This document shows, in pieces, positions 1,896 to 49,378 of a stretch of 52,698 nucleotides of DNA. The stretch covers positions 107,666-160,363 of the forward strand of contig CAJNOF010000202.1 in the NCBI GenBank assembly GCA_905250055.1, in the 5' to 3' direction. Within the stretch, counting starts at the first letter, position 1. Every line of letters starts with the position of its first letter. The notes under the pieces were generated by a model that was given only the letters and a program-made list of their open reading frames with translations, made no database searches and had not been told where the DNA came from. The translations under genes and the position numbers were made by a program. The stretch comes from Rotaria sp. (lineage: Eukaryota).

Positions 1896-2165
1896 GTGAA
1901 CACACAGTTAGAGGGTGTGGGTGTGGGTATGGGTGTGGATGTGGGTGGATGTGGCTGTGGCTGTGGGGTGTGGGTGTGGGTGGGTGTGGGCGTGGGTGGG
2001 TGTGTGGGTGTGGGTGTTGGCATTGATGTGGTTGTGGGTGTTGGTGTGCGTGTGGGTGTTGGCATTGATGTGGTTTTGGGTGTGCGTGTGGGTGTTCGCA
2101 TAGGTCTTGGTTTCAACCATCTCTGAGAGCACATCGACCCACACGCACACCCACATGCAACTGCA
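1896..2165. repeat. Degenerate telomere-type (TGTGGG)n array, G-strand ~230 bp, followed immediately by a short C-strand (CCCACA-like) segment
   Basis: Runs of gggtgtgggtgtgggtatgggtgtggatgtgggtgg... through 2126, then cgacccacacgcacacccacatgc at 2135-2165. The ORF-track [12 protein letters not shown] ORFs here are translation artefacts of the repeat. Confidence 0.85.
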
Positions 2166-2213
2166 AATTAAAAACAAATGGTTAATTTCTCAAAAGATTT
2201 ATGCTTCCGGGTG

Positions 2214-2400
2214 TGGAAACGAGTTAGTGGCGGAGCCAGGATTTTGAGCTGGGAGGGGGCTCAGCCCTCTCTGAAGCACCGTTGAGCTCCGGTTGGCAAA
2301 TAAAATACATGGTTTAAAAATTTTCCTGAGAGGGGCTCAAAGGTTTCCTGGAGGTGGGGGGGGCTCAGCCTTCCAGTCCACCTCTGGCTCCGCCACTAAA
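2214..2400. repeat. G-rich palindromic element carrying the GGGGGCTCAGCC motif; 15-bp inverted repeat tagtggcggagccag / ctggctccgccacta
   Basis: 2224-2240 gttagtggcggagccagg versus 2381-2398 cctctggctccgccacta. Internal near-palindromes gagggggctcagccctctc (2255) and ggggggggctcagcc (2358). It sits between two telomere-repeat arrays. Confidence 0.6.
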
Positions 2401-2769
2401 ACGAGTACAGGTGTTCAGTGTAGATTCGGCAAAAGTAGAATTGCGTCCACATTGATACTCATACTCATACCCACAGCGAAATCGAAAAAGTGCTGTTTTA
2501 CCATACTGTCGATATTCATTTCAATTAAACCCCTCGTCATAATAAATGACCCCGGGTCTTCTATGATGTTCCACCAAAATTTTTGAAATTTTGGCCCATT
2601 TCTGCTGACGATAACACGAAATTACTATGGAGCGACCGCCCTGGAGAAGCGTTCTTCGAAAGTGGGCAGGTCTTCTTATATGGAATGGTCTTCTATTATA
2701 TCAGCGAGTTTGTAACAAATTAGCTCTAATGCATCGCATTCGATCCAAGCTGGATGATCTCCAAAACAG

Positions 2770-2945
2770 GATGTCGGTGTGGGTGTGGATGTGGGTGTGG
2801 TGTGGTCTAAGAGAATATATACACCCACACCCATACTCCACATACCCACCCGCACTCACATCCATGCCGCACATCCGCACCCACCCACACGTACATACTC
2901 AGACCCACACCCAGCCGCCCACACCCACCCACACCCACACCCCGC
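2770..2945. repeat. Head-to-head telomere-repeat palindrome: G-strand arm 2770-2808, ~12-bp spacer, C-strand arm 2821-2945
   Basis: tgtcggtgtgggtgtggatgtgggtgtggtgtggtc, then taagagaatatat, then acacccacacccatactccacatacccacccgcactcacatcc...cccacacccacaccccgcacc. Confidence 0.85.
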
Positions 2946-3478
2946 ACCTTCTTCTCTGTGTTTTGTTTTAACTAACGTTGCAGTGATAACTAATAGTGAA
3001 ATATTATTCTTCTCTGTTATGAGATTATATGCAATTCTGTTACAACATCTTACTGGCTGTCGTGCCGCCGCTCTGCTGGAATGGTGACCGAAACGTGTCC
3101 AAAGGTGACTAGGGGAGTAAGCTTGGAAAGTGACGTCACCTCAGACACTCTAAACTTTCGGCTTCGGCGAAAATTTGGGTTACCTTTTCGATAAAATGTT
3201 CGGAAACTACCCACACTCCTCTTTGGGTGGGTTTGAAAATTGTCTCAATTTACTTTGTTTTAAATATTCGCCGGCAAGTTTTTTGTGATCAGGTGACGTC
3301 ACGTTTATGAAGTGGGATGAGGTCAGCGGAGAAAATGACCAAAGAGCAAGCTGGATTGGGGGCGGGGAGGAGGAGAAGGGTTTAGGAAAGGTAACATCAT
3401 TAATGCACAGCCCCTTACGTCATCTTGAAAATTCCCAACATGCCTTGCGTATATATGACCGCACATTCTATAGTGTGT

Positions 3479-3817
3479 AGCATGAGCATGCTATCACTCT
3501 ATCTCTTTTTGTTTCTTGTTACTGGTTCTTTAGGTGGCATGAACGACCTTTTTCGGAGCTCCAGTTCTCATCGACCGCTGGAAGTCCAACAATGTATGAA
3601 TCGGACTCATTTCGGGTACTTTTGCCCGGACGACAATGCCTGTCACGATGGCTACGAACGGTGTAGGAACAGCAAGACTCCTTCGTCTTGTAGTAACAAC
3701 AATTGCAGGGAACTTCCAAATGGTAGATACCGTTTTGACTTCTACAAGACGTCGCTCTCTCGTGAGCATGAAAAAGTTGACCTACATTTTGCCCCACATT
3801 CAACAAAGACGCAGTAG
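3479..3817 (+). CDS. Putative small secreted cysteine-rich protein; N-terminal signal peptide MSMLSLYLFLFLVTGSLG, 10 Cys in the mature part. Exon structure uncertain.
   Basis: ATG at 3479 preceded by a TATA-like gcgtatatatgacc (~3448-3461). Hydrophobic N-terminus followed by CMNRTHFGYFCPDDNACHDGYERCRNSKTPSSCSNNNC. The open frame runs to a stop at 3815-3817. Confidence 0.4.
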   Translation, partial: SMSMLSLYLFLFLVTGSLGGMNDLFRSSSSHRPLEVQQCMNRTHFGYFCPDDNACHDGYERCRNSKTPSSCSNNNCRELPNGRYRFDFYKTSLSREHEKVDLHFAPHSTKTQ

Positions 3818-4092
3818 TGTCAAGAAAAGGTATAAATTGAGCTAAAACCGATGTGTCGACGTGTTTTACGAAAGTTTGTTTAACTGTTATGAGGTCAAGC
3901 ACCATATGGTTCAGTATCGTGGATACCTGTTTGAATTTGGCACCTATGGTCAACAGGTACTCGATCTTCTCGATCCTAAATACAAGTACAAAGACCAAAG
4001 CCTTGATTGGATAGATTTTGGGTCAAGTTCGTGCACTCTGGAACAAGTGAAACGACACACTGACTTCTGGCTACAGTCGCACAACACATAAC

Positions 4093-4374: not shown

Positions 4375-4591
4375 ATAAACTTGTCGAACCGATGTGCAGA
4401 AGACTAAGAAGAAGAAGGTGCAGGATCAAACAGCTGTCAATCTACTGCGAAACGCTATCGGATAGCTTAATTTTCGATGACATTCCCTGTCTGCTCATTA
4501 ATGTAACTGGCTCGTCATTTTTCGATTTTCGTGCAAGCAGTGACTTCCAACTATATTTCACAAGCTGAAAAAGTTCAGTAAACCCCCCCTC

Positions 4592-4712: not shown

Positions 4713-4957
4713 TTTAATATGAATATCGAATAATCTAATGTTTTACCATTAAAAGGAGAGGTCATGGTTCGCATTGAACTCAGCATATTTGCATTTTAAT
4801 GGTTTTTGAAACAGGAGCAAAGAAAATCGTGATAAAACTATGCCAAATATTTACTTTTGCTTGGATAGGTCAATTAAATTTCTTCTTCTTTGATAAAGTT
4901 TTTATTGTGACGTTTCGACGACGATGTCATCTTCTGCAGACAGTGAATTTCGAAAAT

Positions 4958-5062
4958 GAGGGTGTGGGTGTGGGTGTGGGTGTGGGTGGGTGTGAATGTG
5001 GGCGTGGGTGTGGATTGTAAGTGTGGACGAAAAAAGGATACAGTCACACTCACACCCAAATC
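4958..5062. repeat. Head-to-head telomere-repeat palindrome (G arm, 26-bp spacer, C arm)
   Basis: gagggtgtgggtgtgggtgtgggtgtgggtgggtgtgaatgtgggcgtgggtgtgg ... tcacactcacaccc. Confidence 0.8.
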
Positions 5063-5835: not shown

Positions 5836-8195
5836 TCAATGAAATTCAATAGTGACTCCAACATGTTTAGGTATAAGAGTTAGTTTCTGAATAAATCCAC
5901 CTGCATTTACTTCAGGACCACCATCACCAATTGTCATTTGTTGTAACATACGAGCTAGAATTACTTTTAGTTCGAATAGAGCTAAATCTTGTCCAAGACA
6001 TTGACGATGACCACCTCCAAACGCTAGAAATGCATATGGATGATGATTTTTATCTTCATCAAGAAATCTTTCTGGATAGAATAATTCAGGATCGATTTTC
6101 CAATGACGCCTATCTCGAGCGAGAGAGGATGTTGGAATCAGTACTTGGTCACCTTTGTAAAGTCGAGTACCACTTTTAGGGAGACAGTCGTCGACAGTGA
6201 CTGAACGACATGTTGAGTCAATCGTTGGAGAATAACGAAGTACTTCATTGATAAAACAATCCAAATAAATAAGTGAATCAAGATAATCTAATGATAAATG
6301 TTGACCACCATTATTCTCCATTAGTTCTGCCTTGATTTTTTGCTGAACTCTTTGCTGTTTACTTAGATGATAAATAGACCAAGCAAGAGCAGTAGATGTC
6401 GTTTCATAACCAGCAATCAAAAACATGAGTACCTCATCAAAAACTTCCTTTCGTGAAAGACCTATCAATAAAAGAATAGTAGATATAAAACCGCATGACT
6501 TCAATATGCAGTAAAGGTAGAGATCACTGCAAAATAGGCAAATCTAACAAAATTTACATTATATATATAGACAAGGACAATATATATCTCGATATTATTA
6601 GGAAGAATTCAAGTTCATTCATGGAAAATAATGCAATCGTTTCATACTATCATTGAAAAGCCTTCATAGATGAAATCTAGAGAAAATGTACTAGATTATT
6701 CGATGAATAATAGTTTTGACTTTTGCTCTGTTCGATTTCAGCAACTAAAGGATAAAAAACGTTTATCCGTTTTTGGATGTGCAGTTGTGTACAGTCGAAC
6801 AAGATCCAATCATATACAAATAGAAACAAGAACGACCAAGGGTGTGGATGTGGGTGTGAGAGTAGTAAGTTCCATAGTCCACTTCTACACGTCATACCGA
6901 CACTCACATCCACACCGTATTCCGAAGATCTCAGCTCTAGTAACAATTAGACAGAAAAATTCATGTCTTCGTCATGCTATAGATAACATGCTAGTGTAGC
7001 AAAGGCATAGAATGCCGTGAGAAACATGTGTATGAGCATTCGTTCTGTGGAATTTTTAGTAAAAAACAACTTTGCTCATAGCAAAAACTCAATAGATCTT
7101 GAAATTTTCGATTCATAAATCAGTCGATGGTATTTAGAAGACACGAAAAATGTAGCTGCATCATATAAGTTGTATGATCTTTCCAAAAAGAAAATTCAGC
7201 GTGTAAATATACGACAAATTATTAGAAACGATGAATCAAACCAAGGGTTTAACGAATCGATTTTACCTCTTTTATCTTCCTCCTTTTTTCTTGCTTCGAC
7301 TTTTTCATCGGCTTGTAATGAATTCACAAGTGATGCGATTAATGAAGTTTTCTTTCGTTGTGCTCTCGACTCTGGACTTTCAGCCAATTCTTGTTCGATC
7401 ATTTTATGAAAATGTCGTTCGACTGTTGCTCTTGCTCGTTGAAATCGAGTATTCAACTTCATATAGATAATTGATACAAAACTAGGCGCATATATAGCCA
7501 TTTTAAATGTACTCATGATATCGAGCAGGGCTTCGGTCAGTTCATTATTATTGCTGGAATATTTATTATCAAGTGTTTCCAAATTATAATCAAAAGCAAT
7601 TAATCCAAATATTTCAAGAAGAAGATTTTGACACTGTTCAACAACATCTGTATGCACCTGATTATGTGGTCTAGCACGCCATCTGTCTAATAGTTTGTCA
7701 GTACTATCAACAATTGTGTTAATATTTGAAATAATTTTGCTACGACGAAATAACGGCATAGTAAGAGTACCATGCCGTTTGAATTTGAAACCTAGTAACC
7801 AAAATGAATAAATACTTGTTATTACTAGACCAATAAGCGATACCTATGTTACAAATGATACTCTCAGGAACCAAAAGGCTAAATTTTTCTAAAAATACTT
7901 GCCCTTGATCGTAAACATTTCGATGCGTAAGAACGTACTGAACATCGTCAATATCATGCACAACAATGAAACGCATAAAACCAAGCCAATATTGATAAAT
8001 ATCACCGAACCGTTTCTTGAACGATATATAGACATCAGATGCTGATCTTTTTCCTAATAGTAAACCCGATTGAAGAAGATTTCCAAAAAAGATATGTGGA
8101 GACAAGCCAGGTATTGGACCACGAAGTGTAAAATATTTCAATTTAATATAGACCATCAATACAATGATGAAAAAAAGCAACAGAAGAGTCACCAT
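5836..8195 (-). CDS. Cytochrome P450 monooxygenase (CYP3-clan-like), apparently intact, 3 exons, ~500 aa
   Basis: Minus-strand join 8195..7844, 7791..7267, 6461..5836, with phases consistent (352+525+626 nt). N-terminal membrane anchor and proline hinge RGPIPGLSP, I-helix AGYETTS, PERF (FYPERF), heme-binding FGGGHRQCLGQDLA. ATG at 8195-8193, TGA stop at 5838-5836. Intron 1 is 52 nt; intron 2 is ~800 nt and contains a telomere-repeat palindrome. Confidence 0.85.
6840..6920. repeat. Head-to-head telomere-repeat palindrome located inside intron 2 of the intact P450 gene
   Basis: ggtgtggatgtgggtgtgagag ... spacer ... cgacactcacatccacaccg. Confidence 0.75.
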
Positions 8196-9284
8196 TATAA
8201 CAAAGCGTTAAACAAAAAATGCGGCAATCGTGAGTGCCCGATGGTAAATATTAATGCCTATGTGCACATGTCACCTTTCTTTCTTTCGTTTTCTGCTGTT
8301 TCGCCGCTCTTGTGCGACACATGCAGCCAATACTATCATGCAAAAGGACATAGAATCACATGCTATATCTATGAATAACTACGAATAGCTTTTTTCTACA
8401 AATCATACGTGATTTTGTCGAGTAACGCCTGTACTTTGCTCATTCCAATCAGTTGCATCTAAATCATAGAAGTATTATTCTCACAAGGCTAGTCTGTTTT
8501 AAAAAGAAGCAAGGACATTTCATTCACAAAAAAAACTATATTGTAGAAAGACTTCTCGTAAAACATGTGAATGGTGCATATTGTGATCAATCAACCGATT
8601 ACTGCTGTCAATACACATATATATATATATCATTATAAAGATAGTGGAAAATATACTTAAATATACTCAATCAATGTTAAATGATTCTCGCGATAGAGAG
8701 CTTCAAGTTCGTCACTCGATTTCAATTAAGTGAAATGTATTTTTGTCAATAATAGAAAAATACTCTAAATATTTTTGTATCTAACAAAATTGAATAAATA
8801 CTTTATGATTTAATTATCATTCAATTTGGCTGGAGAAAGCAACATTTTCATAGGTTTTCAAAGTTTTATTTATCACTCAGTTTCCAATAACACCATTATA
8901 GCTTACGATATCGCCGAATTTTCCATGATAGTATGACTCATTTCAAGCATTATCATTCCATTTAAAATTGCAATTTCAACCCATTAAAATTTATTCTTCT
9001 GTTTTTGGCAGATATCCATCGTTTAGTAGTAATAAAGCGTATGCGAAGTCATCTCTTTTCTAGATACTGCGCAATAGCTACTCCTAAGTGAGACGTACTG
9101 GTATCAGTAGAAATTGCACTGAAAACTACTGTTACAGCACTTCATTATTCAAAGCGAATAATCCACAGATTTCATATCAGCAAGTCATAATAGTCATGGC
9201 CGTTTAAGCCAAAAGTTCAGTCTCCTATAATCGATAGAGTACGTATTAATCATGTCGATTTTATATAAAAGTAGCTGTCACATG

Positions 9285-9346
9285 CGTGTGTGGGTATGAA
9301 TCTGAATGATGGGAATACTCACACCCACATCCACCCATCCACACCC
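9285..9346. repeat. Head-to-head telomere-repeat palindrome
   Basis: gcgtgtgtgggtatgaatctgaatgatgggaatactcacacccacatccacccatccacacccc. Confidence 0.75.
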
Positions 9347-9608
9347 CATTTTAAAATAGCCAGCCGTAGACACTTGAATCGTGTGTTGTTGATGGCTTTA
9401 ACTTATATATTTTTTTTACAGCTGAGGCCTTGTACATTTTTTTTTATCAAATGAATCATAGAGTACTTTTCAAAGATTGCAACATTTTATTTATCTTATC
9501 TTTCTTGTTTAATGTAAATATTTTCGGACTGTGGACTTTGTTGAGAATGTGACAACCCTTATCAAAATTTAAGTATTCAAGGTTAGATATATACTAAGAC
9601 TGCTATGA

Positions 9609-9697
9609 AGAGTGTGAATATGGGTAGGGAATGGTTTCAGGGAAGGAGAGACTCATACACACTTGCACACTCATACTAGTGGGTATGGGCATGTATA
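9609..9697. repeat. Telomere-like G/C/G arm cluster (degenerate)
   Basis: gagtgtgaatatgggtaggg ... actcatacacacttgcacactcatac ... tagtgggtatgggcatg. Confidence 0.55.
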
Positions 9698-9989
9698 AAT
9701 CCCAATACAAAATGTTCCAATGAAGTTATACAACATGTTTCGATTCATTCGAGAATCATCTTCAGGTATGTTTAGAAACATTACAACAATATTCAAATTA
9801 GTCAAAAATAGTATTGATAAAAACAGAATTTCATCGAACATAAACGTAGAAATGTTACTTGTTCGAGCGAAAAATCATAGTTCGAATTCACAAAGGTGCA
9901 TATTTACCAGTGTGGATAGAATCGTAACCGTTCCACAACAAACGACTTCTGTTTCTGTTCTTTCAGAAATTCATCAGGTGAGTCTTGAG

Positions 9990-10032
9990 GTTGTGGGTTT
10001 GGGTAAAGAGAGCACATACAACCATACCCACA
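9990..10032. repeat. Short head-to-head telomere-repeat palindrome
   Basis: gttgtgggtttgggtaaagagagcacatacaaccatacccacaccc. Confidence 0.6.
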
Positions 10033-12273
10033 CCCTTATAATTATATCAAAAACAATCTATGTATAGAGTTTTTATTTCCATGTCGAAAGAAGCATTGAA
10101 TTTTGAAAAATATATTTATTTTATTTTCAATTAAATACTTATTGCAGAAAAGTTAAAATTTTCATGATTTGAAAAACAATGTTCATTCAACGAAATTCAC
10201 ACCCATATATTATTGTGAATGTCAGTATACATATAATTCATTAAAGATAAACATTAAAAAAGAAATGAACGTCAGTATGTTTGAATCTCTACATGCCCTA
10301 TTTGTCAAAATTTTTTGAAATTAATAAATGATAATCAATTAGCAAAAGGTTCATTAAAATTTCAAAAGATTCAATCGAATATTTCGAATACGACTTATTT
10401 TCGTACATTGACTATTGGTTATGCATACATCATTCTTTCTCGAACGTTTAATAACATGTATATCGCTTATTGCAGACCTTTCTTTTGGTGTAAATGATAC
10501 ATTGATGAATGAGAACGAGGATTTTGGGTGTGTAGATGAAGGTACTAGTGATATGCATACTCGCATCATTTTTCTCTCATTGACTTACATTTTAGTAATT
10601 AAGAGTATACTTTGTATACACATCAATAGTTTATGCATCATGCTTTGTCGTATGAATCCTAAAGAGAGTGAAGAAGAAATATTGAAGATTGATTTACTTT
10701 AAAGGTAGGCAAAATAACGATATTGTTTTATGTTGTAAAAATCGATCGGTTTCTTATCAATCATCCAGCTAACTTACTTCGTAAAAGATTATTGGTATAG
10801 GTTCGCAGAAAGATATAATATAGACTCCTCACGATTATTTTAGTCAAGACTTAACATGAAGTAAAAGATTTTAAAAAAGGAATTCAATCATTGTAATTCT
10901 TTTACTGAACATAACTGATATAATCGATTTATTCAGCTAGTAAGGTTGATTGTGATCATTCTAATTCTCTTTTTATTTTTTATTAAAGCATAATTTGTTT
11001 AAACTAAATAGTGTTCTCACTTCTGTTTTTTGTACCTGAATGTTTTTATAGAAAAAGCTGCTTAAATGAGCTTAGGGTGTGAATGGGTGTGTGTGTGTGC
11101 ATATGTGTGAGAAAAGAAAACGACTACGCTCATGCTTATACCGATTTACACTCGTGATAGAGAAAATGAACGTACCTCACCTTCAAACGCAATTTGAAGT
11201 TACCTAACTGGATTTGCTCGCATATATGTCGCACATTTCCATTAAGATAAGTAACTGCTTTTACCTACTGCACAGAATAAATACGAAATCTATTAACTGA
11301 AACGGTGGCGATTTTAGAATGGAAAGAAATTTTAAAGCGTCACTCGTCACAACATAGACTAACTTTAGTGACTATTTTATCACAAAGTGATATTTTATCA
11401 TCCGTACGTAATTTTCTTTATCACATCGTCAGACTGCACTAACTCTGTAGTACACGCTACAATGGTTATCAGATCAATATGTCTTAGGTTTCAAACAACA
11501 TCTACTGAGTATCACCGATTGCCGATGATTGTCTTGCTGACAATTAGCCTCGTCTTTCTTGCAACTAAGCGTAGTGGACTCGAAAGAGATTTTGCACTAA
11601 AGCAATATGATAATACCTAAGAGAATAGTTTCTCTAAAAATTTCGTTGACAAGAACTTGTTGTCCTTTGATTCTTCATGTCTTCATTGCACATATTGCTG
11701 TTACTAAGAATAGAGACATGTTCACTATTTACTGTGAGAAAGTTCCATCAATTTTAAGGTTATCTTTGCAACAAATTTAGATACATTCATAACAAATCAA
11801 CATGAATAAGTAGAACTTGGTTGTTTTCAGTACTGAGATTTTTTGATCTAACATTAAACGACTTCGAGCAATCCTATGGTATGTGATCGAATTTATAGTC
11901 ATAATCCTATTAACTGTAGAAAAATGTGTTTGATGATAACTGTTAAGTTGTAGGTTTATTACACGACAAGAGGATTCTTAAGATGGATTGCTGATGTGCG
12001 TTTTGGCATCTAGAGCGAATTTCTCAGTATTGATTACTCTTGGTTGAATGATTAATGGATTGAAAACTGTAAATCTTATAAGTATTTATCCACAGAAATT
12101 TATTAGGAGTTTCATGCACTATCACATTACACACTTCAAGTATTCTCTTTTCGAAAAAGCAAAATTATCATGATGAAAAGGAGCAGTCTTGCTTTGGATC
12201 AATAAAGAAAACATCGTCATTCTCAGGATGATTAGATATCTTTTTTTTTTATTTGATAAACAAAAAATATTAT

Positions 12274-14255
12274 CTAAAACCAAATATCGAATATATGTGG
12301 TTTGGATCTCCAACTCCATGATCGAGGACAGTTCATTCCTTTATACCATTCAGATGCCAATGCAGTCAAATCGTAAATGGTATTTTTGAATAGTTCTATC
12401 CGACAACAAAACAATGTGAAATGAATGAGTTTTGGAAAACGATTGAATACAAGTCGAAGTCCACTTTGAAAATGGTCCAGTGTGAGCCATGACGCTGGAT
12501 CAGCATCGACGAAGATTGTTAACTTTTTTAGTGATGATGATGACGAATAAGAGTAAATAGTATCGACAACTTGAACCAATTCAAGAAAGGAACTTGTTCT
12601 ATCTTCACTACAGAAACGAAGTACTTCAAGATGATCGGCAAGATATGTACAAAGTTCGATATTGAATGAAAGAGCAAGACCAAATGCAAGTGTCGCCTGA
12701 ACTTCCAGTTCGCAAAAACGTGGTGCTCGTTGAGCAACATAGAGTAGAATTGGTAGATTAAGACAAATTTGATTTCTATCATGAAAGAGAAAAAAACGAA
12801 TTCAATCTTAAGAGTATGCGTGTTGAGAAAAAGAAGACTAACATTCACATCAAACTATTCGTTAACCAGAGTCATTTTAAAACCTGAACAGGATGAGAAA
12901 AATTAAAATCACTATCATATTGATTTCTTTAATTCGAAAAAAACCGTTCCATGATAGAAGACATTTTCAGACATACTGTTATGGAAAATATTCTACTGTG
13001 AACGTAATGTGAATAGGTATTAGAATTCATTCTTCTCTGAAAGTCTACCTTTGAAAGAAATGTATCGTTTCAAAAAACAATTTTTCATTTAAAAGATTTT
13101 TGTTCTTGATCTATTGAAGATGCTGAAAAAGATTTTTATTGATTTTAACAAGCAGAAATCTTTTCAGCAAATTTCTTAAGTCGAATCATGAAAACATCAA
13201 TTTGGCTTCAATATGTCTGTCGATTAGACTATTTTTTAATTTATTTTAAACTTAGTTGCTTATTTTGTTAGACGATCAGATCATATATCGAAGAAAATTT
13301 GAGAAAAAAAATCAAACAAAACATTTCACTTACGGATCTGTTGTGCAATCACCCAAGATACATATTCTTCGAAGATTGTTCCAGCGAGACACATTATGCA
13401 CTGCTTGTATCCATTTATCTTCCAAATGATCCGAGTCTTCGATGTCTAACTAGAACCAAATACATTGAATAGAAATCATCGTATTCAATGATTGGACTAG
13501 CTGCAAAATGTCTAAGACATAGACTTTCTTAATATCTTTTGATCCCATGAAAATGGTCATCTTTCGAAAGAAAGCAAATGTTTGAATGTTGAAAACTCTA
13601 TTTTTTCCTTCTGTTTGTTTTCGAACACTTATTGAAAAAAAACCTTCAAAATGTACATTGTCGATATTTTGGAATTCTCTGACCTGAAAAAAGCATGACC
13701 TAAACAGTGAATTTGTACATCTTAAACTAAGTATTCTTCTTGTTAGCTTCGAATGATCCAAGAATACAGCTCGATTTTATTTCTTACCTCTTCATTAGTA
13801 GCAATCATTGAATAATCATCATCGTCGTTTTTTTCACTTCCATCCTTACTGTCATTTCGCATTAATTCAACGTTAATCGGATAACGTATAGCTATGTTAT
13901 GTTTTTGATCACATGAGTGAGAACCGAATGTTTTGGTATAATCAGTAAACAAGCCATTCAAGTGTTCTTTATCCTCGTCATTGCCACAGACCACTGACAA
14001 ATCTAATCGAACATTACATCGTTTCGATTTCGGCATAACTAACCATCGTTGTAAGTTATATGCAGTGGGAAGATCAGCATTCTTGCTAAAATTTACACGA
14101 CCACGTAATGTAAATTGTTCAAGTTGTTCGCAACGATAGAGATCTTCGAAATAACATAATATTCCTTCAATGTATGCAGAAATTTCAACTTTGATACGAC
14201 GTAATTCAGGTACGCAAGTTCGATTCAATGGTGTCTGATGAGATGGAATTATCAA
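12274..14255 (-). other. Possible additional coding exons (F-box/LRR-like) downstream of the F-box exon, or a second gene
   Basis: Minus-strand open frames at 13743-14255 (acceptor ttttag just upstream, at ~14282-14277), 13330-13446 (flanked by an AG acceptor and a GTAAGT donor; contains WIQAVHNVSRWNNL), 12528-12848 and 12274-12579. Leucine-rich, no confident domain assignment, and frames conflict near 12528-12579. Confidence 0.25.
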
Positions 14256-15481: not shown

Positions 15482-15545
15482 GACTTTGAGTGTGAATGTG
15501 TTTTTCGCTTCATCTACACTCCACATCTCGACATCCACCCCAAAA
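15482..15545. repeat. Head-to-head telomere-repeat palindrome (degenerate)
   Basis: gagtgtgaatgtgtttttcgcttcatctacactccacatctcgacatccacccc. Confidence 0.6.
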
Positions 15546-15965: not shown

Positions 15966-16760
15966 GTACATATACGTGTATGGAGGCGTTCAGTCAACAA
16001 ACTCAATTTATTTAAGCAGCGGAAACTAATGCCTCTCCTTCAATTTTTTCACTCTTCCCATCCGAAAGAAATGACCAAGATTATCTCGTTGACTTTTATT
16101 GAAATCATATATTTTAGCGTAAAAATCGAGTAGATCTTCATTTATCACCGAGAACAAATTCTGTTCTGACACATATAAACATCGATGCATCAATCCTATT
16201 CCGATTCGAAACTTCCGCCTCACAGTTTCCTGATGTGACAATAGAGGGAAAAGTCAGACGAGATGTGGAAAGATACATGCAAAAAAAAAACAATATTCGT
16301 GATACTGATATTGATACTGATTTTCCTGCTATGGAAAAATGATTTGACGTACGGTTTTGATAGTATTTTATTGATTGTTTCCATTTTTTTTGAATAGGTT
16401 GAAATTTGGTTACATATTTTTGCTTCTTCGATCTCCAAATATTCGAATTCTGATCTCAATGTTCTGGATTTTCACGTGTGGAATGCTAGTACCATTAATA
16501 TACGATAGCATAAAGTTGAAAGTTATGATTCATTAATTGGCAGAGTAAAAGCTCCCGACCTAATCGTGTACCCATAAATGATATCGTTCGCAGTATCGAA
16601 AATTAGTCGCACAGATATCCGCTTATCTTGAAGACGAAATACAAAGAATTAAAACGATTTTTTTCTTTGCAGATTGTAGAGCTTTTCACGTTACATCTTG
16701 TAGTACATTCTATTTTTTAATAAAACGTATTGAGAGATTAAAATATGTAATGTAAAATGC

Positions 16761-16822
16761 GGGTATTTAGGGTGTGGGTGTGGATCTGGTTGTAATTGAT
16801 CTTTTCATTCATACCCACACCT
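16761..16822. repeat. Head-to-head telomere-repeat palindrome
   Basis: gggtatttagggtgtgggtgtggatctgg ... cattcatacccacacc. Confidence 0.7.
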
Positions 16823-16886
16823 TCAAGTAAATAAAAGGCAGTAGCTGCATACGAAAATAAACAAACTATACGAATAACTTGACATT

Positions 16887-20961: not shown

Positions 20962-21032
20962 AGGAGTGTGGGTGTTCGTTTTAGCTGCATTCACATGCAC
21001 ATTCAAATTCACATCTACACCCATCTTCGATA
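20962..21032. repeat. Head-to-head telomere-repeat palindrome (degenerate)
   Basis: ggagtgtgggtgttcgttttagctgcattcacatgcacattcaaattcacatctacacccatc. Confidence 0.6.
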
Positions 21033-21756: not shown

Positions 21757-21920
21757 ATGGTGGGTGGTGGGTGTGTGCGTGTATGGGTGTGTGTGGCTGG
21801 TTGTGGGATGGGTGTGCGTATATCCGGAAGATATATCTACATCCATACCCACCCACATCCACATCCGCACCCATCCACACCCACAGCCACACCCCACACA
21901 CTCACACCCACCCACACTCT
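21757..21920. repeat. Largest head-to-head telomere-repeat palindrome in the window: ~75-bp G arm, ~8-bp turn, ~80-bp C arm
   Basis: ggtgggtggtgggtgtgtgcgtgtatgggtgtgtgtggctggttgtgggatgggtgtgcg ... atccataccc acccacatccacatccgcacccatccacacccacagccacaccccacacactcacacccacccacac. Confidence 0.85.
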
Positions 21921-23205
21921 CTTTTTGCCTCACGATAGTGAATGATTCCAAATATTTCTATAGGTTAAACGTTTAGTAAGAGCGCTTAAAACTACTGTTA
22001 TTTAATCTAATCAAAAGAGAAAATTTCTATTTTTTGCCAAAGATAAACGAGAGATTTTTGGTTTTTTTTGTATGATTCAAGTTCACCATGTTCTTAATTT
22101 TTTTTCTTTGGTTAAATAATTTATTTACGATGTTTAAGTTTTTGCTTAGCCTATCTAGATTATCCAAAACTCTGCAGAATTTTTTCAGCTGTTCGTAAAC
22201 ACGAAATCTTTCAAGAATCCGGTGGACTAGAGTTAATTTGTGATAGGTTACTTCCATGAGTAATCAATTACAAGAATAACCAGGAAACTAAGCTATATAA
22301 AAGGAGATATGTCAACAAATTTTTGGATATGTTTGCTTTTTTTATTGTTGTGGTTACTTATGAGAGTAACTAATAAAAACGGGTTGTCAGTGTGTGTGTG
22401 ATAAGAATATTGGTCTCAATTAGACTCACACTTTCTCACACTCTGAATTGCTCGAAGAGATTTTTTTCCTCTTATCATATGGCGAACACTAATTCGTCTT
22501 CGACGGCATGGTATTATAAACTAATCTCGACATTCTAGAATTGTTTTTAGAAAACTAATGTCCGTGCATTGCGGAGCGCTTTGTTAATAACTTGTTCATA
22601 TTCTATGTGCCAACATTTTCGTCCTGCCAGAAGAAAGACCTAATCATCAGGTACGGTGTTTTCTTTCGCCAATTTCATCAATATTCATAAACTCTTAGGA
22701 TTTATTACTTTCCTTGCTTTATTTTTATTAAAGAGAGACTTTGTTTAACAAATGCGTGCTTAATAATCAATATATTTCTGACCATAATCAAATAGATAGA
22801 TGTTTTACGTAGCGGTAGCTGCAAACCTCTTTACAGGTTGAATACAAGAGCTCTGCATGAGAATGTTGACTTCGTTGAATTAACAATTGTGTCAGTCGTC
22901 TAGTTTAAATATTTAGTCGATAGATACCCTGCAATTGGCGACAACATCCATAGTGAAGTGCATTAGTGTAGTGCTTGGTGATTTGCCGACATTTTCACCG
23001 TATACTTGTTTCATCGAATTGTGCAATAACATAAAATACATGACATGTGCAGAATTGTAAAGACAAAATGTCAATAGCATTGGTTTACTCATTTTTTTTT
23101 CTGTTTCTTTCTACCACACAGTAGGTAATTGAATATTAGCCATCACAAAAAACGCTAAAATGAATCTATTCGTAGATTAGTTAGAAGATTATTGATGACT
23201 TTCAG

Positions 23206-36533: not shown

Positions 36534-37740
36534 CTGAAATTTTCCATTTTCTGGATTAAATTTTCTCGTAATTTTACTTTTATTTATTGTCTTGTTCGAA
36601 AGCAAAATACAGTTACACGTACCAAAGGAAAATAGCGTTACAAACATGTTTGTTTTCCCTGAGGATCTCGAAGTAACATTAAGTACCATAGTTTCATTCG
36701 CTAGTCACCTATGTCGTGAACCGAACATCGCAGTCAAATCTTTCATTCTAAAATACAAAATATGTACATAGTGCATGTTCAATTAATTATTTATGAGATT
36801 TTGTTTGTTTTTTATTTCTTTGGAACTTCAGATATGAACGCATGTGCATGTGTAACTTTAGTCCAATCATTAGTTGATTCGAGGCTAATCTGCAGCAAGT
36901 TTGCCATTTGGCCAGTCAGTACTACCCAAACATAAAATCTATAACACGAATGATTTTCTATCAACGTCCTTTACGTTTTCACATGAGAAGAATCAGCAGG
37001 GATGCCAACTTTTGGCGATACTAGCGCGATATTATCATTAATGCATTGTCAGTTATGTACGTTAGACATATTACTTTCTAATTTGGTGTTCGTCTTAGGC
37101 AGTGAATCAGCAGATCGACTCAAACGGGAGGACGGACTCTTAGCTGATACTTTGACTTTGAGTGTTTCTTCTTTTCGTCCTATAGCATCACTCAAAAAGT
37201 CATATCCAACAGTATCATTGAAAATGAAAGCGGGATCAGATGAACCTCGTAGTGGTGGCTGCTGTATGGGACCTCCAATAACAGCAACACACTCAAGGAA
37301 AAGCACTAGTAAGTTACACTCACATGAACTTCTTGTTTATCTCGATTAATGAAACGTGAATATATATACAGTTTCAGAAGCTTCGCCACGTGGTGGTAAA
37401 CAAGGTAAGCTACTTGAAATAACTCATTCATTTATTCTAGTTTTCTTTCTACAGATACAGATGAACGGCGTAAGGAAATTTATGAGAAAAAGGCTGCTTT
37501 AATGAAATCATCGCTTCAATGCCTCAAAGTATGTACATTAACATGCTTTTTGTTTTTCGGAAATTTCCTTCACTTCTAGGAGAAAGTCAGTGCGGATAAA
37601 AAGGTAAAGAAGTTACCTAGTGAGATAATGCGGAGCTCTATAGTTGACAACAGAACAAAACTCGACACAACGTAAGTTTTAATATCTATCACATTAGTGC
37701 ACTACGATTAATTATTAATCATCTAAATTGAGTATTCAAC

Positions 37741-38337
37741 CAAGAACGAAAGAAGTGCCAACATCCGATACATCTATATGTGATCTTCTCCTTCTCGATG
37801 TCTGTCCGCTTAGTCTTGGCATTGAAGATATTCACGGTCAAATGCACACAGTTATTCGTCGTAATACAACAATTCCAACACGTACACAATTCTATCCAGT
37901 GTTCACAAATGCTTATGCCTATCAAACAACTGCTACCATTCGTATATTTGAAGGCGAACATAATCTTACAAAATACAATGTGTGTAGTGTTCGAAATTCA
38001 ACATTTTTGTTTTGATAGCTTTTTCTATTGTAGATACTTTTGGGCGAGTTTAGTCTTTCTGGTCTGACAAGCAATTATGCTGCTCAGACACTCGTAATTT
38101 CTATTCGGATGGATATTGATGCTAATGGTATAGTTCATGTCGATGCTGAAGAAGCACGTTCAGGTGCCAAAGCTTCCTTTACTGTCACATCCGATGATCA
38201 ACAAAGTACAATAATTATATAACTGTTTCAGGTCGTAATTAAATCCTATTTATGTTTATGTAGGATTGACCAGAGATGATATTGAGCGACATATTACATA
38301 TGTTAATAGTGACCCAAGTTTTGCAGCTAAATCAAGT
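37741..38337 (+). CDS. HSP70-family C-terminal substrate-binding domain (SBD-beta + start of lid) coding exons; no ATPase (NBD) domain found upstream
   Basis: Exons ~37741-37980, ~38034-38214, ~38264-38337: ICDLLLLDVCPLSLGIEDIHGQMHTVIRRNTTIPTRTQFYPVFTNAYAYQTTATIRIFEGEHNLTKYNV / LLGEFSLSGLTSNYAAQTLVISIRMDIDANGIVHVDAEEARSGAKASFTVTSDDQQ / GLTRDDIERHITYVNSDPSFAAKS. These align to the HSP70 segments DLLLLDVAPLSLGIETAGGVMT..IKRNTTIPTKQTQ.F.TY.DNQ..V.IQVYEGER / [34 protein letters not shown] / GRLSKEDIERMV. Upstream exons at ~37440-37650 (TDERRKEIYEKKAALMKSSLQCLK, EKVSADKKVKKLPSEIM) resemble HSP70 lid helices ([22 protein letters not shown]). Confidence 0.55.
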
Positions 38338-42598: not shown

Positions 42599-43194
42599 TT
42601 ATTAATGTCCGTTTCAAAATATAATGCGCCCCACTGTTTTTTGAATAACTCAAGAATGCAATCAGCTAGAGACCTGCGGTTTTCACCAATCAGAAGAAGG
42701 GACAGGGGGCGTCTTTTTCTCCAATATCGTATCAGACGGAATCATTTTGAAACCAGTCATTTCTGCATAACATCGAAAAAATGGTCTGTCATTCAGATTA
42801 AATTTTGAGAAAAAGTAAAAAAATTTGCTTCAAAATTAAAAGAAATTCATAGTTTTCTTGCGAGTAAATAGACGATTTTATTTGCTAAACGTTAGGATGC
42901 GGTAAGATAATCATTCGAATTATATCCTGAAGTATAGATCCGAAGTCCCTCTATCTAGATCACATGTCAAAAGGAAAATTTCTTCAGAATGCCGAGTCGT
43001 TTTCATGCATTTTTTGCAATGTTTTGCAGAAATGACTGATTCTAAAATGATTTTGTCGAATATATTATTGGAGAAAAATACGTCCCACTGTCTCTTCTTT
43101 CGATTGGTGAAAACCGCAGATCTCTAGCTGATTGCGTTCTTGAATTATTCAAAAAACAGTGGGACGCATTATATTTTGAAACGGACATTAGTAA
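42599..43194. mobile_element. Non-autonomous DNA-transposon (MITE-like) element, ~596 bp, with ~110-bp terminal inverted repeats
   Basis: Left TIR ttattaatgtccgtttcaaaatataatgcgccccactgttttttgaataactcaagaatgcaatcagctagagacctgcggttttcaccaatcagaagaagggacag... Right TIR (reverse complement) ttactaatgtccgtttcaaaatataatgcgtcccactgttttttgaataattcaagaacgcaatcagctagagatctgcggttttcaccaatcgaaagaagagacag... About 6 mismatches. Internal ~370 bp with no meaningful ORF. Confidence 0.85.
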
Positions 43195-44082: not shown

Positions 44083-44165
44083 TATGGAGTGTGAGTATGG
44101 GTGTGAGTAATGGTCTGGATGTAGTATTAAATAGTTAAATGAAACATCCATACCCACACCTGCAG
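44083..44165. repeat. Head-to-head telomere-repeat palindrome
   Basis: gagtgtgagtatgggtgtgagtaatggtctggatg ... spacer ... catccatacccacacc. Confidence 0.7.
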
Positions 44166-45330: not shown

Positions 45331-47877
45331 ATGGAATTTCCAGTTACGTTGCGGCTGTACATATTGTTGATTGTGATCGTGATATGTAACGGACTGTCGA
45401 GTCCTCTTCGACCTTTTACGACCTACAAACATTCGGTAGAACTTCAGGAAAAAACGGCTTACCTATGGTGGACAGTGAATGATGTCGAACAAGAGATTAC
45501 ATTTGAATTGCATATGAAGACTGTCGGATGGATTGCTTTGGGGATTAGTCCAGGTAGGAAATTCTACAGTTGACTGTTTCTCTGATTTTGATGTTTGTAA
45601 TTGACATTTAGCTGGAGGCATGAAAGGTGCTGATATCGCAGTCGGATGGGTTGACTCTTCTGGTAAAGTTCATATTCAAGTATGACAGATATTTTTTCTG
45701 ATTTCTAACGTATAAAAACATTCATCGATCGAGTCTTTTATCAGGATCGATTTGCATTCGACAAAACAAAACCAATCATAGACAACACAACTCAAGATTG
45801 GTTTGTTCTTCAAGGACAAGAACAAAATGGATGGACAGCCATTCAATTCAAACGTTACTTTGATTCTTGTGACCCGATGGATGTTCCTATTAAAGTATGA
45901 CTGTTGATTCTGCTGTTAAACTAATGGACATATTATACTTTGTCACAACTAGTCTGGCACGAATATTCTAATATTTGCCTATGGTCTTGTCGATCTTGAT
46001 TTGTGTCAATCAAACGTTGATATCACGTATCATAATGATCGGAGAGGTACACGTATGTTACCACTTCGATCGTATTCTGAATCACCAGCGGATGATATGT
46101 TTTCTGGACGAGATTTCTTCGATTTCCGTTTCGACAATGTGCTTGACTATATAATAGTATCTTTTTTTTCTTATTCTTCATCTCTTTCTTTAGCATTTGG
46201 TACCATCAGCTGATACAACGTACTATTGCAAAGTATTCATGAGCCCAAATAGATTTTCTACGAAAAGACACGCGATAGCCGTACATTCTATTTATTTCAT
46301 GATTATTTTACACTTATTTTGGTATTTTCTCATTCTTGACAGCATAAAGTATTAATTGATCCGAGAAATGTGAATCTTGTGCATCATCTAGACCTATTCG
46401 AATGTACTTCGAAGGATGTACTCAATGATGACCATCTACCCGATGGCATATGTGATGATATTCTCACTGAAACGAGAATCTGTTCGTCACGTTTAGCTAC
46501 TGCTTGGTCAATCGGTGCTGATGTGGTAAGTGGAAAACGACAATCAAAAAATTACTAATAGAATGGCTTGAAATTCAAATAGACTACAGTATATCCGGAA
46601 GAAGCTGGTTATCCTATCACTACTAGTGTCGGCACTAAGTATTTTATGATTAAAATGCACTATGACAATCCACGACAAACTTCAAGTAGGATAAATGAGC
46701 GTTTGTGTTGCACAGTTTGGAGTAAGATTGATTCTTTTATTGTTCTCTAGATCTTCGAGACAGTTCAGGGATTCGATTTTATCTTGGTGATGAACTTCGA
46801 CAATATGATCTTGGTTACGTCTTATTTGGAACCCTGTCTAGTCCAGCAGCTCTTGCTATTCCACCGAAAACGGAACAGTTCATTGTCGACTCTTATTGCC
46901 CTCCTGAAGCCACTCGCGTAAGCACATTGTTTCATTCATATAAGACTTGAGATTATATTCGTATTCTTCTTTGTGAAATAGAATTTTCCTGTTTCTGGTA
47001 TCAACATCGTGTCCGCCTTGCCACATACTCACTTACAAGGTACATGACTTGTAAGATAATGAAAAGACTAAAAATTCATGGGTTTCTATATAGGTTCCAG
47101 CGTATGGACCAAATTGATTCGTAACAACACAGCTGTTCAATATCTATTCAATGCAGAAGCATTCGATTTCAATTATCAATTCGCAAATCGGCTACCAAAG
47201 CCAATCAAAATCTATCCAGTAAGAAATCAGGCAGCTGACATGTGTAAAATTTGATTAAAATTTAGGGAGACGCATTTGTGACTCGTTGTATATATAGTAC
47301 AAAGAACAAGAATGTGATCACATTGGTAGAATGATAAAATAAAATTGTGCAGATTTATAATTTATATTTTGTCCATATATAGGGTGGAAAGCGAACAACG
47401 GACGAAATGTGTTCTCACACATTCTCTTATTACCCACTCGTTGATAGTCTATCCGCATGCATGTCAGCCATTGACGAGACAGCATGGCAAACTATCATGA
47501 ATACATCCACGTCAGTTTTTCTTTATAAACTTTCGAATTCTAGTTCTTTTTCTCATTTGAATAGACCAATAGGCAACATCAAACTGCAGGAATGGCTTCT
47601 TAATCTTGTATGGACACCTCAAGCAGTTACTCAATGGCAAGAGTTCTACAATAAAGCTCAACGTTTTATTCTTTATGATCGAGAAGGCCAATTCACAAAT
47701 AAAGTTTTACTCACCATCCCGAAATATAAAGATCTTACAGCTGAGCCATGCAATAAAAAAGAGGTTCAACATAGTACGGATCAATCATGTGAGATATTCA
47801 ATGATTCAATAGCTTGTCAACATACATTGTATCTCTTTACTTTAATTTTCTTTGTTTTGAAAAATATAATTCCTTAA
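45331..47877 (+). CDS. Dopamine/tyramine beta-hydroxylase-like copper type II ascorbate-dependent monooxygenase (DBH/MOXD1 family) with N-terminal signal peptide and DOMON domain; 11 exons, ~614 aa
   Basis: Join 45331-45553, 45612-45679, 45745-45894, 45953-46138, 46194-46280, 46343-46525, 46583-46685, 46751-46917, 46982-47039, 47094-47218, 47383-47877, with all phases consistent. Signal peptide MEFPVTLRLYILLIVIVICNG. DOMON: WTVNDVEQEITFELHMKTVGWIALGISPAGGMKGADIAVGWVDSSGKVHIQDRFAF. DTTYYC. CuA signature HHLDLFEC (H-H-[LM]-x2-F-x-C). HYDNP. CuB signature HTHLQG (H-T-H-x2-G). DEMCSHTFSYYP. TAA stop at 47875-47877. Confidence 0.85.
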
Positions 47878-48339
47878 TTGAAAAGCTTCATTGATTTTGT
47901 ATATTAACATTTCATAGCAAGCACTTTTTATGGATAACAGGCTGATTTTTTACTCGTATCAGTTTAAAACTAGGTAAAATCCTTTTAGTGACATCATCAA
48001 TGCGCCAACATTCATAGCGGCTATTGAAGTCCAAGTTTTTGAAATGGTCAAAAAATCACTCAACCACTTAGAATAGCCAAAATTAGTGTCTCCTGTCTTA
48101 TGTTTCTTCATGGAAAGCTTAATTATGTCTCTGTTACAACTTTTTTCATCATGAAACAAAGATGGGTGATTCAAGCCTTGTTTCGAGTCAGAGTTTTTTG
48201 GGTTATTGTTCGTATCTGTTTATTTTTACTGGGAAGATCCACAACAATTTTTTTTCATTATATCCCGTTCCAATTTCTTCGGAACAAAAACCGAAATAAG
48301 AAAAGTCACATACAAAATGAAAACATAAAACTATAGATA

Positions 48340-48570
48340 TATAGAGCAAGAATTCTTGAAATTTTCACTTTAAAAAATTAAGGTTAAAGTAATATTTTTC
48401 ACAAAAATTTTTTTTTGAAAAAGAAATATTTCTTTCACTAAAAAAAATATTCTTTGGTAAATAAAAACATTTTTTCGCAAAAAATCATTTTTTTCACACG
48501 AATTTCGATTTTTACAAAAAAAAATGATTTCTTTTTACAAAACAAAATATTTTTGTGAAAAAATCTACTT
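48340..48570. repeat. AT-rich minisatellite: ~10 degenerate ~20-bp units (TTTCAC/G-AAAAAAT-ATTT...) flanked by ttaaggttaaag / cttaactttaac inverted motifs
   Basis: ttttcacaaaaatttttttttgaaaaagaaatatttctttcactaaaaaaaatattctttggtaaataaaaacattttttcgcaaaaaatcatttttttcacacgaatttcgatttttacaaaaaaaaatgatttctttttacaaaacaaaatatttttgtgaaaaaatc. Confidence 0.65.
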
Positions 48571-49302
48571 TAACTTTAACTTAAAAGTTTGAAGTTTAAG
48601 CATGTTACCTTAACTTTAACGTTAAATAAAATTAAAGTGCCACTTCTAACGCGTAGTCCATCACTCGTAACATATGAAAATGAAGGTCGAAAAAATTCTT
48701 GACGAATCCCTTTGGGATGGATTAGATGCAATTAGCAAGTAAGTTGTGATTAATTAAGAAACTATAATCTTACATATAGTAAGTTTTTATGCCGGTAAAC
48801 CAAACTTTTTTAAATTATTGACTCGAGTCAAACAGTTGAGTCAGTGTTTCCAAATTTTCGAGTCCAAGTCATGACTCGGACTCGCCTATCCCTGCCTGGC
48901 TAGTGATAGGCTGCTGTTTGAATTCTGTTTTTCTTCTCAAATTCATCATTCGAATTTTCTCGCCCTAAGAGCATACAATAGTTGTATGCCTATGAAAATT
49001 TTGTTTTGTTGTTCGCAATAAAATTTTGTTTAAATTCTGTTGTTTGTTGAAAATTTATTTTTTTAGAATTTCTGTCGTGTTAAAAATATCCAATATTAAT
49101 GTGCCTATGCGAAGTTTGGTTTCTCTCATAAGTCATACAATCTTATTCTCAAGCGTACAATCACCTTTAAGATTATATTCGACTTTCTGTCTAGTATGGA
49201 CAAGCCTATAAAATTCGAAATTCTGCTTTGTAGATATTTTGCAGGCCCTCCTTTTTCTATCAAATCATAGGAAGAAAGACATCAGAAATTCAATAAAAAC
49301 AG

Positions 49303-49378
49303 GATTGTGAGTGTGGGAGTTCATGTACCGATAAGTCTTCTTTTTGTCCACACACTCACTCACACCCAATTCAAGGAG
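49303..49378. repeat. Head-to-head telomere-repeat palindrome
   Basis: ttgtgagtgtgggagttcatgtaccgataagtcttctttttgtccacacactcactcacaccc. Confidence 0.7.

Follow-up and report, generated by a model that had tools for sequence, protein, structure and literature searches.

Stretches of telomeric repeat in interstitial and subtelomeric positions have already been described in bdelloid rotifers (PMC2861651, PMC8494291), whose telomere hexamer is TGTGGG (PMC8494291, PMC7943196). The sequence considered here is a 52,698-nucleotide stretch of Rotaria sp. (assembly GCA_905250055.1, contig CAJNOF010000202.1, positions 107,666 to 160,363 of the forward strand; hereafter the window), in which the same hexamer, as a preliminary description of this DNA had recognised, makes up the arms of a dispersed palindromic repeat. 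At each of 16 sites a TGTGGG-like run (the G arm) is followed 10-37 nt downstream by a CCCACA-like run (the C arm), and the two telomere-like arrays stand head to head around a short spacer. Several described systems come close to this arrangement, and each departs from it in specific ways.

De novo telomere addition is known from irradiated Adineta vaga, where telomere repeats occur at deletion breakpoints, and the 2026 study reporting them speaks of transient neotelomeres "leaving only scars" (PMC13564844). As in such healing, the G-strand repeats considered here start abruptly at non-telomeric DNA, run 5'->3' away from the flank and are irregular in composition. However, a healing array is one-sided and terminal, whereas the palindromes consist of two facing internal arrays around a 27-nt core and are inherited interstitially. 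Fusion-type interstitial telomeres (human 2q13 type) likewise present a G-strand array followed by a C-strand array, but they represent one site per event, have subtelomeric flanks and contain no unique core, in contrast to 16 sites within 52.7 kb among ordinary genes.

The Athena and Terminon Penelope-like retroelements use (ACACCC)n and (TCACCC)n repeats (PMC6431247, PMC8557442), which are the complements of the TGTGGG and TGAGGG units seen here, the latter corresponding to the (TCACCC)n tails of Terminons (PMC6431247). They also act at free 3' ends without an endonuclease, and Penelope-like reverse transcriptases self-prime inverted repeats (PMC3846280). Unlike these elements, the present copies have no adjacent reverse transcriptase gene or hammerhead ribozyme and lie in gene-rich DNA rather than in subtelomeric arrays. 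Further, from the mechanism set out in PMC6431247 and PMC3846280 we infer that Athena attachment to a G overhang followed by re-healing would leave repeats of the same orientation on both sides, whereas here they are head to head. Athena termini had been proposed initially as one source of the palindromes. Because there is no reverse transcriptase among the 20 largest open reading frames (ORFs) of the window and no hammerhead in the window and 20 related loci, and because the predicted orientation is wrong, Athena or Terminon termini can be excluded as the direct explanation.

Foldback elements of the Drosophila FB type and miniature inverted-repeat transposable elements (MITEs) are, like the present repeat, short dispersed hairpins with variable, unequal arms of tandem subrepeats and a short central loop. 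They differ in that the copies described here show no target-site duplication, have ragged termini and a discordant order of units between arms, are accompanied by no partner transposase that could be seen, and carry arms identical to the host telomere repeat. The full-text literature yielded no dispersed head-to-head telomere hairpin family with a conserved core, although the primary papers on Athena, Terminons and bdelloid DNA transposons fell outside its coverage and may mention one. The family belongs with the interstitial telomeric and foldback repeats, and there is a realistic chance that its copies are scars of chromosome-break repair.

Polarity of the palindromes

The 14 palindromic sites originally listed for the window are all present, with coordinates that hold to within a few bases. 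A fragment at 11070-11115 that had been taken to consist of a G arm only is in fact part of a full, very decayed copy at 11072-11155, and two other supposed fragments, at 28955 and 29030, belong to an unrelated hAT-like MITE and were not counted. When the plus strand of the window was scanned for two telomere units (any rotation of TGTGGG, with at most 2 mismatches in 12), 16 G-type and 12 C-type segments were obtained, and for each of the 12 C segments there is a G segment less than 60 nt upstream. The exact pattern GTGTGG-N11-71-CCACAC has 20 matches in the window (10 per strand, at 6 sites), as against 0.06 expected from dinucleotide-preserving shuffles.

Comparison loci were retrieved via P450 homologues, that is, they were picked by gene and not by the repeat. 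Across 219.6 kb of such gene-anchored bdelloid DNA, the window included, there are 27 G-then-C pairs, one C-then-G, one G-G and one C-C pair; the sole C-then-G pair falls between two neighbouring copies in locus L012 of Adineta steineri. The fixed G-then-C orientation noted at the outset is thereby borne out, and the inverse arrangement is rare rather than equally frequent. The statement that the inverse never occurs was too strong, as it is found at one place in the window (2139-2216), where a solitary GGGTGTGG octamer comes after the C arm of the first copy. In every copy the G strand starts at non-telomeric DNA and runs 5'->3' away from it, on the top strand in the left arm and on the bottom strand in the right arm. 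All copies are internal and two-sided, and none is a terminal array. Viral contigs taken as a control gave two phage-type G-then-C hairpins and zero C-then-G, which is too few to inform.

Distribution across bdelloids

G-then-C palindromes are present in R. magnacalcarata (L001 12359-12440, with perfect 15-nt arms GAGGGTGTGGGTGTG), in Rotaria sp. Silwood2 (L002 4414-4506), in R. sordida (L011 and L013) and in Adineta steineri (three pairs in L012 and five in L246); the 19 kb sampled from Didymodactylos carnosus contain no copy. Judged by these sequences, the family is found in every bdelloid genus sampled save the thinly covered Didymodactylos, consistent with the original proposal of one dispersed, hairpin-forming family with fixed G-then-C polarity. 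The reported placement of copies in introns and between genes also holds: window copy 4 is intronic, copy 7 apparently so, and the remaining window copies are intergenic. Of 18 copies in annotated loci from other species, 15 fall between genes, and these 15 favour neither the 3' nor the 5' ends of genes.

A scan of public metagenome contigs for GGGTGTGGGTGT-N11-71-ACACCCACACCC returned 105 contigs. High-GC matches, which are bacterial or phage hairpins, were excluded, and 70 non-redundant copies were obtained on contigs with a GC content below 0.47, many of them from few related samples (Ga0116226, Ga0116230). These contigs carry apparently ordinary animal-type host genes, as read from their largest ORFs with no domain search.

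Two sets of contigs differ from the family. One, comprising ten metagenomic contigs (L175, L194-L196, L202, L212, L215, L235, L243 and L244; GC 0.36-0.43) with surroundings 75-98% identical to one another, has a different conserved hairpin of 73 nt in common, GGGTGTGGGTGTGTCGAGGTCAGTAATGAGTGACCGAAGGGAACGAATTGC...ACACACCCACACCC, and represents a separate organism or element in which the end words recur. In the other (L143, L153, L185, L199 and L230; GC 0.43-0.46), long TGTGGG arrays almost directly abut CCCACA arrays (GGGTGTCCCACACCC) in a satellite-like context, possibly as genuine head-to-head telomeres from a different taxon.

A palindrome copy also lies downstream of the stop codon of an orthologous P450 gene in three species, at 777 bp in the window (4956-5062, the gene being the first P450 gene), 348 bp in R. 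magnacalcarata (L001 12359-12440) and 642 bp in R. sordida (L011 11239-11311). The three copies have no alignable common spacer, and their position could be due to shared ancestry or to coincidence at this copy density.

Core, arms and outer ends

The well-preserved copies from Rotaria, Adineta and the moss-metagenome contigs have a common core, GGTGAGGG-TCTTCTCTTTA-CCCTCACC, for which 12 independent copies give the consensus GGGTGAGG GTCTTCTCTTTAC CCTCACCC. The conserved core is 27 nt long, of which 11 nt form the centre, and its length is constant. The centre and the innermost telomere units are conserved in at least 12 independent copies, and some copies are without the centre. In 414 kb searched, the centre is recognisable only between a G arm and a C arm and has no one-armed context.

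The whole repeat is about 40-250 bp long. In the best-preserved copies the left side reads as an optional ATCT, an outer TGAGGG unit and a variable run of TGTGGG, TGAGGG and TGGG units leading up to the core, after which follow a complementary C-rich run and an optional AGAT. CCCACA and CCCTCA are the units of the C arms, and it is CCCTCA that adjoins the core. Outside the core the order of units varies among copies. An arm start beginning GAGTGTG had been singled out earlier as common to many copies; it is a decayed form of this end motif, (ATCT)TGAGGG followed by TGTGGG units.

When 32 outer ends were aligned on GAGGGTGTGGG, the preceding positions showed T in 24 (-1), T in 18 (-2), C in 12 (-3), T in 17 (-4) and A in 15 (-5), and were random beyond -5. 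The full ATCTTGAGGG terminus stands at 7 of the 32 ends, with TTCTT or GACTT at three more, and no examined copy has it at both ends. Other outer ends begin at (T)GAGGG, and many of those not anchored on GAGGG begin inside the TGTGGG array. The 15-mer end motif proved too unspecific to serve as a search probe. None of 42 well-preserved copies is flanked by a target-site duplication: the best flanking direct repeat averages 2.24 nt, compared with 2.39 +/- 0.15 in mismatched flank pairs (n=42). The possibility that the ends are splice sites or those of "introners", judged solely by eye, was rejected, there being no consistent AG at the 3' ends.

The two arms of a copy resemble each other no more than they resemble those of other copies. 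Aligned from the core outward in well-preserved copies, cognate arms are 70.9% and non-cognate arms 70.4% identical (permutation P=0.40), and in the window copies the corresponding similarities are 10.4 and 10.2, with no mirror symmetry. The well-preserved copies can form very stable hairpins, that of L209 reaching -52 kcal/mol (z=-10.7) and that of L001 z=-5.0.

Two cases record how parts of the repeat have been duplicated. In L239, copies at 3046-3118 and ~3590-3670, 560 bp apart, have ~50 nt in common with 2 differences, namely a decayed arm and the centre, while the remaining arms and both flanks are unrelated; the pair is, judging by this pattern, the product of half-element copying. Except for this pair, the idea that spacers are copies of nearby DNA was rejected, as their longest matches are no better than those of random segments. 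In L246 (Adineta steineri), the copies at 3266-3316 and 13209-13269 have the spacer TTAGACTACTACTTATACCCACAT in common. The homology of the two loci begins inside the palindrome and extends rightward only, which places the copy at the edge of a segmental duplication of ADP-ribosyltransferase/NHL genes.

Window copies as decayed members of the family

The window spacers cannot be aligned with one another (best pairwise local score 10, against a shuffled maximum of 9-13), and the core of the family becomes visible only via the better-preserved copies from elsewhere. A profile built from non-window copies only, spanning the core +/- 30 nt, matches eight window sites at E<0.01; two further sites are weak and those at 6839, 9609, 20963, 22389 and 44089 are too decayed for it (Table 1). 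Further, the window spacers match the centre motif at a mean of 7.86, compared with 6.98 +/- 0.24 for random window segments (P<0.0005). On the suggested comparison of spacers the answer is therefore divided: there is no alignment within the window, but an 11-nt centre in well-preserved copies and a weak, significant trace of it in the window. By their sequence, the window copies are old, decayed members of one family and not random telomere fusions.

Table 1. Palindrome copies in the window. Arm boundaries of decayed copies are accurate to a few bases only; z is the DNA-folding score.
Copy	Position	Arms, spacer, ends and setting	Family profile match	z
1	1910-2159	G arm of 189 nt (1910-2098) with a duplication inside it, C arm of 24 nt (2136-2159), 37-nt spacer; 88% arm identity with (TGTGGG)n; end AGAGGGTGTGGG	2066-2161, E=3e-3
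2	2769-2944	G arm 34 nt, spacer 16 nt (TCTAAGAGAAT, centre trace), C arm 126 nt	2772-2858, E=4e-10
3	4956-5062	G arm 61 nt starting TGAGGGTGTGGG, spacer 27 nt, C arm 19 nt	4984-5060, E=7e-4	-3.05
4	6839-6917	Long intron of first P450 gene	not significant	-4.0
5	9283-9347	Between divergent P450 gene and ORF starting 9720	9281-9348, E=1e-5
6	9609-9677	Strongly decayed (72% arm identity with perfect repeats); trace of the centre, GGAAGGAGAGAC	unmatched
7	9986-10038	Outer end TCTTGAGGTTGTGGG, centre TAAAGAGAG (10/12 match)	9976-10038, E=1e-7
8	11072-11155	G arm TTAGGGTGTGAATGGG..., centre AAAAGAAAACGAC, C arm very decayed
9	15487-15542	Decayed	E=0.07
10	16767-16825	Outer ends TTAGGGTGTGGG and, on reverse strand, CTTGAAGGTGTGGG	16758-16829, E=8e-4	-3.55
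11	20963-21023	Decayed
12	21763-21921	G arm 59 nt, spacer 17 nt, C arm 83 nt; right end GAGAGTGTGGG (reverse strand)	21759-21880, E=4e-5
13	22389-22444	Decayed
14	44089-44164			-2.99
15	49305-49369	Centre GTCTTCTTTTTG (10/12 match)	49302-49372, E=3e-4
16	50921-50959	Short, decayed, GATGTGGATA-TTCTCTTTCCTA-CCAACCACATCC; absent from the preliminary description	E=0.15

Copy 6 is the weakest of the sites listed previously, and copy 16 has a centre similar to the variant TCTTCTCTTCCTA of L188 and L224. Copy 7 lies inside an apparent intron of ~100 nt (GTGAGT ... TATAG), read by eye. The window arms are 85% identical to perfect (TGTGGG)n, with G>A as the commonest single change (71 of 149), and no target-site duplication was seen by eye at any window copy. 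Folding z-scores range from -4.0 to -0.5, so that only residual hairpin potential is left; for the copies at 9283-9347, 9609 and 15482-15545 they lie above -1.1, which is no better than shuffled sequence. The overall density is 16 copies in 52.7 kb, but the spread is uneven: 13 of them fall within the first 22.5 kb, and the other 30 kb hold 3. Clustering of the copies, judged by gap size, is not significant (P=0.15). Almost no copies occur in the region of the long PARP4-like gene or in the right half (22501-52698).

Origin of the repeats

We tentatively propose, at somewhat less than an even chance, that the repeats are scars of break repair, in which telomere repeats were added to each 3' end of a break before a copied core bridged the two. 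A chromosome break would expose two 3' ends, and telomerase or a related Athena-type reverse transcriptase would extend each of them 5'->3' with telomere repeats. Under this model only the G-then-C orientation is seen because the G strand is added on the top strand in the left arm and on the bottom strand in the right arm. As two G tails cannot pair together, bridging by copying of the core would be needed: one G tail would anneal to a copy already present, by way of its C arm, or else to an RNA of the same sequence, and be extended across the core, gaining a C-rich 3' end that would pair with the G tail across the break, whereupon the break would be sealed. It follows from these steps that the core and innermost units would be copied and the outer arms made afresh in each event, and that point mutations would then erode each copy. 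Copying would explain why the core and innermost units are conserved, and fresh synthesis why the outer arms are variable and independent; the ragged junctions, the lack of duplications and the half-element pair in L239 are also covered by the model. The extreme inequality of arm lengths in some copies (189/24, 34/126 and 116/31), the L246 copy at the edge of a duplication, the telomere repeats at deletion breakpoints in A. vaga (PMC13564844) and the match of TGAGGG to Terminon tails (PMC6431247) are further points in its favour. The irregular, copy-specific order of units looks like fresh synthesis by an imprecise telomerase-type enzyme.

Several observations weigh against this proposal. No empty site was recovered, so that insertion at a break and loss of flanking DNA stay a matter of inference. 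L001 and its R. magnacalcarata counterparts L008, L009, L010 and L247 carry an identical copy wherever it is covered; L002-L007 of Silwood2 have their copies in common at 99.8% identity; R. sordida L011 and L136-L138 have copies 84-90% identical at a site that cannot be aligned; and A. steineri L012 and L246 are paralogues only; none of these provides a presence/absence pair. An apparent 433-bp indel turned out to be a scaffold gap. The two Silwood2 haplotype breakpoints that could be inspected are without telomere repeats, one of them being a run of N. The lengths of the two arms are correlated across copies (rho 0.66, p=0.002, n=19), despite strong outliers such as 116/31 and 119/34, and the arms of L209 exceptionally mirror each other at 97%; independent synthesis of the arms predicts neither, but hairpin copying or a master-copy element would. 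The junctions of the core are about equally constant on both sides, while a simple version with run-off and end joining predicts one variable junction. Copies with intact arms and no core also exist, such as L001 12359-12440 with a 49-nt unrelated spacer, and a mobile element might just as well have ATCT-TGAGGG as its terminus. Finally, the metagenome copies were retrieved by requiring a perfect 12-mer in each arm and a spacing of 11-71 nt, and its contigs were ascribed to bdelloids by low GC, moss-type samples and host-like genes, not contig by contig.

A second possible source is a non-autonomous foldback (MITE-like) DNA transposon with telomere-hexamer inverted repeats and ATCTTGAGGG termini, mobilised by a putative enzyme and varying in arm length by replication slippage. 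The core and recurrent terminal motif common to several genera, the correlated arm lengths, the mirrored arms of L209 and the perfect 15-nt inverted ends in L001 are all in its favour, as are arms of tandem subrepeats of unequal length, which are known from foldback elements. Nonetheless, we consider this origin unlikely. The 42 well-preserved copies without target-site duplication, the full terminus at only 7 of 32 ends and never at both ends of an examined copy, the unlike order of units between arms and among copies, and the lack of a transposase among the 20 largest window ORFs all speak against it, and slippage alone is unable to reorder TGAGGG and TGTGGG units. The missing duplications, ragged ends, discordant arms and absence of a nearby enzyme gene argue against a classical cut-and-paste MITE or foldback, and the MITE explanation offered initially is not supported in its usual sense. 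Two particular leads were dismissed: a copy in L005 that adjoins a hAT transposase gene has no matching inverted end, and the direct repeat of 8 bp on either side of the L153 copy belongs to a local satellite, on a contig (GC 0.43) that is probably not bdelloid. A slightly less probable alternative is that the whole hairpin is a retrocopy of a small hairpin RNA inserted at breaks by a telomerase-like reverse transcriptase, the RNA being either the hammerhead-cleaved 3' tail of a Terminon or Athena transcript or a read-through of the telomerase RNA template and its boundary hairpin. Ragged outer ends would fit variable initiation and 5' truncation, no target-site duplication would be expected, the core length is constant, TGAGGG adjoins the core in the same order as in the (TCACCC)n-(ACACCC)n tails of Terminons (PMC6431247), and Penelope-like reverse transcriptases make inverted repeats via self-priming (PMC3846280). 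However, a single RNA master predicts a uniform order of units and mirrored arms, neither of which is observed, and the centre is never one-armed in the 414 kb searched. No hammerhead or telomerase-RNA match was found beside any copy searched: at gathering score Rfam has no match in the window or 20 related loci, and a relaxed search of 4 loci gave no hammerhead, only generic microRNA-hairpin matches well below the cut-offs. The L239 pair also counts against retrocopying because the two copies share a decayed arm, which points to a genomic copy rather than a canonical RNA as the template.

A selected cis-element, in the form of a hairpin, G-quadruplex or paired site for a telomere-repeat-binding protein that acts as terminator, insulator or small-RNA source, appears very improbable. 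The copy downstream of the orthologous P450 gene in three species and the very stable folding of well-preserved copies such as L209 would agree with such a role. Against it, the window arms have decayed to 85% identity, with G>A as the commonest single change, and several window copies fold no better than shuffled sequence; the early suggestion of regulatory hairpins or G-quadruplexes is therefore not upheld. The intergenic copies show no gene-end preference, the microRNA-hairpin matches are generic and below threshold, and at one copy per 4-8 kb the co-occurrence beside the P450 gene in three species is not very unlikely. Least credible of all are chance GT/CA microsatellites or relics of ancient telomere-to-telomere fusions, even though head-to-head arrays are the orientation expected of fusion and one interstitial telomeric cluster of A. 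vaga has been interpreted as an ancient fusion (PMC8494291). With 20 pattern matches where 0.06 are expected, 16 copies within 52.7 kb of gene-rich DNA, and the same family, with its conserved non-telomeric core, at many unrelated loci in several genera, both chance microsatellites and simple telomere-telomere fusions are ruled out by copy number and core conservation.

Genomic setting and other inverted repeats of the window

The window, with a GC content of 33%, is by its P450 sequence bdelloid rotifer DNA, as originally supposed: one of its P450 exons shares 78-82% identity with proteins from Rotaria magnacalcarata, R. sordida and Rotaria sp. Silwood1/2, and ~65% with those from Adineta and Didymodactylos. 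Pfam searches with the 20 largest ORFs identified two P450 genes, of which the first lies on the minus strand with exons at ~7795-7230 and 6459-5839, a PARP/VIT/VWA (PARP4-like) gene, a Cu monooxygenase and an HSP70 fragment, and neither a reverse transcriptase nor a transposase. The HSP70 match is a lone 98-aa ORF at 37719-38012 that resembles the middle of the protein (E=4e-15) without obvious neighbouring exons, and it may be a gene fragment or pseudogene.

Other inverted repeats in the window are distinct from the palindromes. The hAT-like MITE mentioned above (28881-29169) is a separate foldback element with inverted ends of ~58 nt (CAGCAGTGTCACATATCC...), an internal GGAGATGCGGTGGCATCTCCTGTG minisatellite and a flanking 8-bp duplication, CTATCGAT, that fits a target-site duplication of hAT type. 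In the interval that separates copy 1 from copy 2 there is an inverted-repeat unit, GTTAGTGGCGGAGCCAGG ... CCTCTGGCTCCGCCACTAAAAC (2223-2403), which resembles a MITE and seems unrelated. Two long inverted repeats that are not telomere-like lie at 3-208 (81-nt arms, 96% complementarity, 44-nt gap) and 42706-43086 (76-nt arms, 80%, 229-nt gap).

Implications

Bdelloids survive massive DNA breakage, and how their broken chromosomes are rejoined and stabilised is an active question, to which a polarised, telomere-armed repeat without the hallmarks of a transposon brings a concrete candidate for neotelomere scars. In a more far-reaching and rather unlikely version, the copies would be scars of germline breaks healed by telomerase and rejoined via the copied core, their density of one per 4-8 kb would preserve, as fossils, the past break repair of an asexual animal that resists desiccation and radiation, and the sequences that flank the template in telomerase RNA would have been copied into the ATCT-TGAGGG end and the core GGTGAGGG-TCTTCTCTTTA-CCCTCACC. 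To our knowledge, no rotifer telomerase RNA has been identified so far. If the template-flank reading is true, the end and core sequences would be a direct probe for this RNA, and a single-copy, one-armed locus reading GGTGAGGGTCTTCTCTTTACCCTCACCCACACCCTCAAGAT would be a candidate for it. Should the repeat prove to be a mobile element, it would be unusual in mimicking the host telomere and in inserting without target duplication. Either way, its copies inflate simple counts of "interstitial telomeric repeats", which serve as a subtelomeric proxy in bdelloid genome papers (PMC7943196, PMC8494291).

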